Positions 9,424 through 10,042 of a stretch of 40,640 nt of DNA are shown piece by piece. The notes beneath the pieces were generated by a model. It made no database searches. It worked only from the letters and a program-made list of their open reading frames with translations, and was not told the origin of the DNA. The stretch comes from a virus (taxonomy: Duplodnaviria > Heunggongvirae > Uroviricota > Caudoviricetes), in the IMG/VR virus record IMGVR_UViG_3300019378_000003; one strand, 5' to 3'. Position 1 is the stretch's first letter. Every line of letters begins with the position of its first letter. The position numbers and the translations under genes were made by a program.

Positions 9424-9499
9424 TGGCGGCTCATAGGGGACTTGAACCCCTGACCTTCTGGGCGACAACCAGATATTCTAACCACTGAACTAATGAACC
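9424..9499 (-). tRNA. trnD: tRNA-Asp(GUC), intact
   Basis: TCTGG-TTGTCGC-CCAGA, G73. Confidence 0.9.
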
Positions 9500-9504
9500 A
9501 TAAA

Positions 9505-10042
9505 TGGCAGTCCCGATGGGAATCGAACCCACGCCTTCGCCGTGCCTTAGATTACAAATTTTGTAGTATATCTTCGGCGTTAAAATCTTGTGCTATTTTA
9601 CAGATACTCTTTTGTTTAGGAGGAACTGTCCAAAATCTTGTTTCGGCTGTCCCAAACGGAGGAAATAAATAATATTTCCCTTTAAACTCTGTCATAAAAT
9701 AATCTATATCGTTAATAGAATAAGATTCTTTTATAACTTTGCCATCAACTCGTTTATCATACCGAGTTTTTACCCTAAAACCTGTTTCCAATTCTGTTGC
9801 ATGTTTACATTGAATACGATAGAACTTTCCATTTTTTTCGATAACTAAATCATATTTCAAATAATTACCTACTGGAAGCAAAACATTCCATCCATGTTCA
9901 AGTAACCATGTCTGACATTTCAACTCGGTAATTTGTCCTACTTGAGAAGGATTTAATTCCATGCATCACCAATCCCTTCTCCAAAGATATACCTTGTAAA
10001 GACCAAGACAGGGCGACATTCTAGCCGCTGAACTACGGGACT
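9505..10042 (-). tRNA. trnD: tRNA-Asp(GUC) split by a ~463-nt insert (9545-10007) carrying an endonuclease gene
   Basis: The 5' half AGTCCCGTAGTTCAGCGGCTAGAATGTCGCCCTGT and 3' half CACGGCGAAGGCGTGGGTTCGATTCCCATCGGGACTGCCA rebuild a normal cloverleaf. Confidence 0.85.
9552..9962 (-). CDS. PD-(D/E)XK endonuclease of the group-I-intron-associated (I-Ssp6803I-like) family
   Basis: G..TEL.C..WLLEHGWNV..P.G....YDLVIEKNGKFYRIQCK...YS..DIDYF pattern; lies inside a tRNA anticodon. Confidence 0.8.
   Translation of the reverse strand: MELNPSQVGQITELKCQTWLLEHGWNVLLPVGNYLKYDLVIEKNGKFYRIQCKHATELETGFRVKTRYDKRVDGKVIKESYSINDIDYFMTEFKGKYYLFPPFGTAETRFWTVPPKQKSICKIAQDFNAEDILQNL

Follow-up and report, generated by a model that had tools for sequence, protein, structure and literature searches.

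What maintains a homing-endonuclease gene in the anticodon loop of a tRNA gene if the insertion has no room for a ribozyme, and is the interrupted tRNA still made? The question is raised by a locus in the 40,640-nucleotide stretch of viral DNA analyzed here (IMG/VR record IMGVR_UViG_3300019378_000003; hereafter the window), which is part of a large gut phage and carries about 36 tRNA genes, including a CUA suppressor, in a minus-strand array. A first-pass annotation of the sequence had described a tRNA-Asp gene with an anticodon loop split by a 463-nt insert and an intact tRNA-Asp gene adjoining it at 9424-9499. Both observations hold: on the minus strand (10042-9505), ARAGORN recognizes the joined exons (10042-10007 and 9543-9505) as a 75-nt tRNA-Asp(GTC), and the neighboring gene is real. 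The same is true of the 411 nt of the insert that had been assigned to a nuclease ORF, which represent an intact I-Ssp6803I-type gene (9962-9552). The locus is composed as follows.

10007..10042, minus strand: 5' exon of the split tRNA-Asp(GUC), 36 nt, positions 1-36, last base anticodon C36 (ARAGORN on the joined exons and sequence reading)
9544..10006, minus strand: insert (intron-like element), 463 nt, placed between positions 36 and 37 (36/37)
9552..9962, minus strand: homing-endonuclease gene, 411 nt, 136 codons plus stop, PD-(D/E)XK, I-Ssp6803I family
9505..9543, minus strand: 3' exon of the split tRNA-Asp, 39 nt, positions 37-76, CCA encoded (ARAGORN)
9424..9499, minus strand: intact neighboring tRNA-Asp(GUC), a separate gene with the loop UUGUCGC and other stems (context, outside the element)

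The body of the split tRNA is that of an Asp and not of an Ala acceptor (pair 3:70 = U-A, discriminator G, loop CUGUCAC). The Ala(GGC) identity proposed by ARAGORN in intron mode, with a junction at 34/35, is ruled out by the U-A pair at 3:70 and represents an artefact of junction ambiguity. Elsewhere in the array (5882-6031, minus strand), a tRNA-Thr(UGU) gene has an interruption between U34 and G35. The insert of 74 nt has itself the shape of a tRNA, with the acceptor strands CACCACG/CGUGGUG, a T-arm, and a terminal ACCA. The array thus contains a second interruption without a ribozyme, of a kind other than the Asp insert.

Protein searches recovered the same arrangement at 13 viral and 37 metagenome loci, and removal of duplicates left 31 loci at which the anticodon loop of an Asp-type tRNA is interrupted by a nuclease gene (insert length, 456-486 nt). 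In the window itself, the insert can be placed equivalently at 9544-10006 or 9545-10007, because one C is common to the junctions 36/37 and 35/36. The earlier description of an insert that follows U35 and ends in G, i.e., with group I-like junctions, reflects merely one of these two placements, and the family comparison favors the other. Enterococcus phage EFP01 (NC_047796, about 105242-105777; L189:1432-1967) has a tRNA-Asn(GUU) gene split by a 463-nt nuclease insert, the nuclease gene of which is 35% identical to that of the window; at this position, the EFP01 record is annotated only with the hypothetical protein gp109, and the tRNA is unannotated. The uninterrupted, otherwise identical tRNA-Asn(GUU) gene is found in phage EFDG1, and the alignment of the two permits a single junction, CUGUU/UUUUC...GAAAGC/AACCAGU, which corresponds to 36/37. 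With this rule, the 5' exon of the window ends in C36 and its insert in C, so that there is neither a U.G pair nor a terminal G. A family-wide junction at 35/36 is possible in the window but was rejected, since it would turn the EFP01 gene into a tRNA-Asp gene while the uninterrupted allele is tRNA-Asn. Bases 32-36 read CUGUC in 29 of the 31 Asp loci and bases 37-38 read AC in 30. The insert terminates in C at 29 of these loci and in U at 2, the terminal triplet being GGC (21 loci), GUC (8 loci), GUU (1 locus), or GGU (1 locus).

The insert encodes a predicted PD-(D/E)XK homing endonuclease of the I-Ssp6803I family, as indicated by sequence, fold, and mobility. The ORF matches the Pfam family PDDEXK_5 (PF11645; E 3.4e-20, 72.9 bits with a cut-off of 26.1) and the I-Ssp6803I structure PDB 2OST (E 2.9e-7), which is also the top fold match (TM 0.74) of the AlphaFold model (pLDDT 90). 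These matches bear out the initial recognition of a nuclease family known from cyanobacterial tRNA introns. The next fold matches are Holliday-junction resolvases, and no RNA endonuclease is among the structural matches. Residues E11, D36, Q49, and K51 are invariant among 10 relatives, and the catalytic E...D...QxK arrangement is kept. Three related ORFs (L002:3004-3405, L008:3007-3402, and L050:760-1170) contain in-frame TAG codons at Gln positions of other nucleases, and the occurrence of TAG at a conserved Gln position in several relatives indicates that the nuclease is read in the phage's own recoded code. Free-standing relatives were also observed, directly after a tRNA-Asn gene in haloarchaeal viruses (L190:1087-1623, Halorubrum virus HSTV-4) and directly before a tRNA-Pro gene in gut phage contigs (L206-L210). 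An alignment that mixed in distant nucleases was too diverse to serve locus searches.

A group I core (P3-P9 and the guanosine site) occupies roughly 200 nt or more, the 5' exon has a terminal U that pairs with a G in P1, and G is the last base of the intron. Only about 52 nt of the insert are noncoding, and all of them belong to the ribosome-binding site or to the paired structure described below. That there is no room for a group I or group II core had been concluded from the lengths, and the conclusion stands for the whole locus including the ORF: an Rfam search at E<=10 revealed neither RF00028 nor any other intron or ribozyme family in the window locus, with tRNA-type matches over the exons only, and the same result was obtained over the inserts of 20 related loci at E<=1. 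RNAalifold found conserved pairs at the ends of 21 whole inserts and none inside the ORF, and synonymous-site identity along the ORF is flat (0.46-0.78), without the block that a hidden core would impose. Junction sequences are wholly different among the Asp, Asn, Pro, and Ser versions, which argues against a common catalytic core or motif. The insert is not a group I intron, as it lacks a core, a terminal G, and a U at the 5' junction. As to group II introns, it starts with UUGG and ends with GGC instead of GUGYG...AY, and no group II match was found over the insert. The BHB motif of protein-spliced introns consists of two 3-nt bulges separated by a 4-bp helix and is cut inside the bulges; it cannot be drawn here, where both junctions lie in a continuous helix and 36/37 leaves only 2 bp for the central helix.

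What the insert does possess is an extended RNA structure. The first-pass annotation had noticed that the ends of the insert pair with each other and with the anticodon, TGTCTTGG (10010-10003) with CTAAGGCA (9550-9543). This pairing was recovered, and it is far longer than 8 bp: nearly the entire 5' leader pairs with the last ~10 codons and the tail, and the three helices H1, H2, and H3 form a rod of ~30 bp that is coaxial with the anticodon stem.

10003..10010, minus strand: H1, 5' strand UGUCUUGG, U33-C36 plus insert bases +1 to +4; pairs +3:-6 and +4:-7 covary
9543..9550, minus strand: H1, 3' strand CUAAGGCA, insert bases -7 to -1 plus A37; bases -3 to -1 (GGC) pair with the anticodon GUC
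9994..9999, minus strand: H2, 5' strand UUACAA (cofold), with compensatory changes relative to L001
9552..9557, minus strand: H2, 3' strand UUGUAA, last sense codon and stop codon of the ORF
9983..9993, minus strand: H3, 5' strand GGUAUAUCUUU, just upstream of the ribosome-binding stretch GGAGAAGGGA
9565..9575, minus strand: H3, 3' strand GAAGAUAUACU, within the codons of the conserved C-terminal A-E-D-I-L

The ribosome-binding stretch follows H3 and is unpaired. The ends of the window's insert cofold with -32.7 kcal/mol, compared with -17.5 +/- 2.8 kcal/mol for shuffled ends, and the corresponding values for all 31 loci are about -30 and about -16 kcal/mol. In folds of the whole 538-nt precursor, the rod is present in both the MFE and the centroid structure, together with the acceptor and T arms. 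The pairing is kept in clades of quite different sequence (L007, L010, L035, and L048). In H3, 88% of the cells compared are paired versus about 50% in controls with the partner slid, double changes occur at 7 of 13 pairs, and one pair is represented by six pair types. This covariation supports the pairing; the rod is conserved and, as the comparison indicates, under selection. Since its mismatches are G.U on this strand, pairing as RNA is expected rather than a DNA inverted repeat.

Under the 36/37 rule, the last three bases of the insert are complementary to the anticodon and change with it.

Asp, anticodon GUC: last three insert bases GGC
Asn, anticodon GUU: last three insert bases AGC
Pro, anticodon UGG: last three insert bases CUG
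Ser, anticodon UGA: last three insert bases UCA

A target-site duplication of the anticodon would account for GTC...GTC at 8 of the Asp loci but is incompatible with Asn (AGC), Pro (CTG), and Ser (TCA); judged from these alignments, complementarity and not duplication is the rule for the terminal triplet. The helix continues past the junction and covaries within a type: in Pro, G:C at +1:-4 is replaced by A:U, and in Ser, C:G at +3:-6 is replaced by U:A. Both junctions are consequently situated in one continuous helix, in which they are separated by three base pairs and arranged symmetrically around base 35.

The distribution of the insert among close relatives is that of a mobile element. Locus L027 contains the insert and shares flanks of 96-99% identity with the insert-less loci L180, L080, and L114, in which the flanks abut exactly at CCTGTC/ACG to give the same 75-nt tRNA with exons identical to those of L027. 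A precise presence versus absence of the insert also distinguishes EFP01 from about 29 other Schiekvirus phages. In EFP01 and L027, the insert is the sole difference from the sister phages, and the only gene that it brings is that of the nuclease. The existence of the exact intron-less allele in near-identical phages shows that the element is mobile. Furthermore, inserts that are 94-97% identical occupy exons of only 85-88% identity, the exon differences being compensatory stem changes; the element hence enters different tRNA-Asp alleles, as expected of a homing element. The exact intron-less allele of the window's own split tRNA-Asp found no match in viral contigs. In the DNA run X12, the contig of one relative has the split gene, and 156 other letters replace the intact tRNA-Asp.

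Several loci of the collection have further peculiarities. In L001 (5043-5598) and L022 (1258-1812), the Asp insert is accompanied by a paralogous nuclease insert, about 478 nt long, that splits a tRNA-Pro(UGG) gene, and the split Asp and Pro genes of L022 are just 3 nt apart. In L004 (782-1304), a type II tRNA with discriminator A, probably Tyr(GUA), is split at 34/35 by a 437-nt nuclease insert; its 3' end is a T-arm-like hairpin (CCGAG-UUCAAAU-CUCGG), a design that differs from the rod. The exons of the related split tRNA-Asp genes in L008 and L046 have an odd T-loop (AGCAAAG), a D-loop without GG, and compensatory acceptor-stem changes that are kept, so these genes may be decaying or may specify an unusual tRNA. 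A phage-borne tmRNA gene (Rfam 77.7 bits) is located directly downstream of the split tRNA-Asp in L018 (1272-1685), and a sub-threshold match to YrlA (Y RNA-like; 38 bits, E 5e-5) just downstream of that in L037 (979-1091).

Protein-dependent splicing is placed first as the most likely reading of the locus, with a nonspliced, tRNA-scaffolded selfish gene close behind. The insert is a mobile homing-endonuclease element without a known or conserved ribozyme core, located between bases 36 and 37, and we tentatively propose that it is removed by protein-dependent cut-and-seal splicing, a proposal whose probability we put slightly below even. The rod would hold the two tRNA halves in a normal cloverleaf and present both junctions (36/+1 and -1/37), which lie on opposite strands three base pairs apart, to an endonuclease that recognizes structure. 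An RNA-repair ligase of the RtcB or Rnl type, encoded by the phage or by the host, would then seal the nick in the anticodon loop, and sealing would restore a working tRNA-Asp and free the endonuclease mRNA or a circle. A ribosome on the last ~10 codons would have to melt the rod, so that translation and splicing would alternate. The reading draws on mobility, the missing ribozyme, the selected rod, the kept tRNA, the ligases at hand, and the multiple split tRNAs; against it stand RNA contigs that are unspliced only, the missing uniformity of the ligases, the absence of EndA from five viral records, the decayed exons of L004 and L044, and the spare tRNA-Asp of the window.

The main alternative, a serious one to which we nevertheless assign a lower probability, is that the insert is never spliced: the endonuclease gene would break the tRNA gene and spread by homing, and the rod and the cloverleaf would serve the selfish gene. 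RNase P and the 3'-end enzymes would cut the tRNA-shaped scaffold from the poly-tRNA transcript, and the scaffold would shield both ends of the endonuclease mRNA in the manner of engineered tRNA scaffolds. The first-pass annotation had offered the same choice, between a protein-spliced intron and a selfish insertion tolerated because of the intact tRNA-Asp beside it. Both options are still live, but the proposed ground for tolerance is weakened: the neighbor would compensate for a dead gene in the window, yet this is the only one of the 31 nonredundant loci with a second Asp gene nearby, and the remaining 30 have no such spare. In addition, the split gene is the sole tRNA-Asp in three viral records with otherwise broad tRNA sets (G001, G003, and G004; 91-100% complete, G003 100%), which speaks against an unspliced insert.

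The state of the exons bears on the same question. When joined, they give a valid tRNA in 27 of 30 testable loci (L023, one of the 31, was left out of the joining test because the 5' exon is missing from the DNA retrieved for it). The 32.38 mismatch is kept, and the bases of the loop have remained those of a tRNA rather than forming a better helix, which speaks for a tRNA that is still used. Several phages have two or three split tRNAs (Asp and Pro in L001 and L022, Asp and Thr in the window), a costly situation if each of them were dead. The intact exons can, on the other hand, also be explained by recent, repeated homing. The unspliced alternative also accords with inserts that resemble each other more closely than their exons do, a pattern to be expected if new targets are invaded continually, with an EFP01 insert that adds only a nuclease gene compared to the sister phages, and with L004 and L044, in which the exons are decayed while the nuclease gene and the rod are intact. 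The contigs compared at the locus, from two RNA and two DNA runs, contain no exon-exon joint, though contigs cannot show the mature tRNA of 75 nt. Those of the two RNA libraries, which may contain DNA, cross the 5' exon/insert junction unspliced, and the unspliced junction is the only one seen in them, in line with the alternative.

Another point in its favor is that no splicing enzyme can be named, with no common ligase and no EndA in the records searched. EndA (PF01974) is absent from the five carrier viral records, in a search in which archaeal controls scored. RtcB is present in EFP01 (140344-141453), as the only ligase found in this phage, and in G004, and PF09414 ligase-like genes are present in G002 and G003; the co-occurrence in the five viral records amounts to 1/5 for RtcB and 2-3/5 for PF09414. 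PF09511 was detected in 0/5 records, in a search in which the control likewise scored nothing. In G005 no ligase was found, and no single ligase type is common to all carriers. A small protein encoded in the tRNA array of the window (7033-7362, minus strand) matches PF20274, cREC_REC (cyclic-phosphate processing receiver domain; E 1.3e-18), which by its sequence hints at a handling of RNA ends with 2',3'-cyclic phosphates.

If the insert is spliced, the sister-phage comparisons limit the choice of the splicing factor. Since the insert is the sole difference in EFP01 and L027, any such factor must be generic, i.e., a housekeeping function of host or phage, or the encoded nuclease, or the RNA itself. 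To our knowledge, no bacterial or phage enzyme cuts at 36/37. RNase III was rejected because its 2-nt stagger would yield a loop of 8 or 6 bases instead of 7. For RNase P acting at both junctions, the geometry of a helix edge with a 3' tail fits, but the tails are not NCCA-like and products with a 5'-phosphate are unsuited to RtcB, so that this is an idea only.

That the encoded endonuclease is itself the splicing nuclease is an unlikely variant. In this case, the RNA helix composed of the anticodon stem, the 33:37 pair, and the anticodon:anti-anticodon triplet would mimic half of the DNA homing site, and a symmetric dimer with a 3-nt 3' stagger around the anticodon would cut exactly at 36/+1 and -1/37 before a ligase seals the exons. 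According to what Bonocora and Shub reportedly described in 2001, the cuts that I-Ssp6803I makes in DNA flank the anticodon and produce 3' overhangs of 3 nt. In four tRNA types the junctions are three base pairs apart and centered on base 35, as this variant demands, and a self-contained factor would explain the spread among unrelated phages (Enterococcus Herelleviridae and TAG-recoded gut phages). However, the fold is that of a DNA nuclease, with structural matches that include no RNA endonuclease, and the PD-(D/E)XK products, with 5'-phosphate and 3'-OH ends, are not joined by RtcB, the one ligase found in EFP01. The insert-side helix is moreover unlike a second half-site, and the 3-bp stagger follows automatically from an insertion at 36/37 and a continuous helix. 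A cryptic self-splicing RNA, i.e., a group I core hidden in the coding sequence or a new, very small ribozyme formed by the rod, would suit the anticodon-loop position and the nuclease family shared with the Synechocystis tRNA-fMet group I intron as well as the placement after U35 with a terminal G that is possible for the window alone, but is highly improbable in view of the lack of any Rfam match at lax thresholds in 21 loci, an ORF without conserved structure or synonymous constraint, the location of all of the about 52 noncoding bases in either the rod or the ribosome-binding site, the C or U, and not G, with which inserts terminate under the family-wide 36/37 junction, and the complete difference of the junction sequences among the Asp, Asn, Pro, and Ser versions.

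Literature searches revealed no published description of ribozyme-less endonuclease inserts in phage tRNA genes. To the best of our knowledge, all introns known in bacterial and phage tRNA genes self-splice, and the splicing of tRNAs by proteins is considered a trait of Archaea and Eukarya that is unknown for bacteria and their viruses. It is conceivable, with a chance that falls just short of one half, that bacterial viruses splice tRNAs without a ribozyme, the codon-like triplet and the rod offering the junctions to an RNase or to the homing enzyme and a ligase such as RtcB resealing the exons. If true, tRNA splicing would have a third route, in the bacterial domain, and phage RNA-repair genes would have a housekeeping use, which would explain why RtcB-type and other RNA-repair genes lie beside the tRNA arrays of many large phages. 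If the insert is unspliced, the locus would provide a clear example from nature of tRNA genes disabled by a selfish gene, with the tRNA shape serving as a scaffold for its mRNA. For either outcome, Enterococcus phage EFP01 and its insert-less sister phages represent a cultured system.

A model for an unspliced insert is provided by the intervening sequences of bacterial 23S rRNA, which are removed by RNase III without re-ligation, and by engineered tRNA scaffolds; in both, an insert closed by a long helix resides in a structured RNA without a ribozyme. The difference is that a tRNA with a nick or an extension in its anticodon loop is unable to decode and is lost unless it is ligated. Free-standing homing endonuclease genes in phage tRNA clusters, e.g., segB of T4, are likewise selfish and target the tRNA gene regions of related phages, but they are located between genes and break nothing, whereas the phage element is inside the anticodon loop and has a conserved rod.

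Protein-spliced tRNA introns of Archaea and Eukarya possess a BHB motif, are cut by the EndA/Sen endonuclease, and are joined by the RtcB or Trl1 ligase, and the archaeal ones can carry homing endonuclease genes. The phage element resembles them in the absence of a ribozyme, in an intron that pairs with the anticodon and extends the anticodon stem, in the need for an endonuclease and a ligase, and in the presence of RtcB in some of its carriers. It differs from them in that there are no 3-nt bulges around a 4-bp helix, the site is 36/37 and not 37/38, the hosts are bacterial (Enterococcus in the case of EFP01), and EndA was not detected in five carriers. With the group I intron in the tRNA-fMet gene of Synechocystis PCC 6803 it shares the nuclease family (I-Ssp6803I, 2OST, PF11645), a tRNA host gene, the anticodon loop, mobility, and a sporadic distribution, and the cyanobacterial site is presumably 36/37 as well. 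The Synechocystis intron is self-splicing by virtue of a group I ribozyme of about 200 nt around the ORF, whereas the phage element has no ribozyme, no terminal G, and no U.G pair, and the only structure formed by its noncoding ends is the rod, in which they pair with the ORF's 3' end. An element that is widespread in phages thus sits where a group I intron would sit and encodes a nuclease of the same family, with a structure apparently built to hold the exons together.
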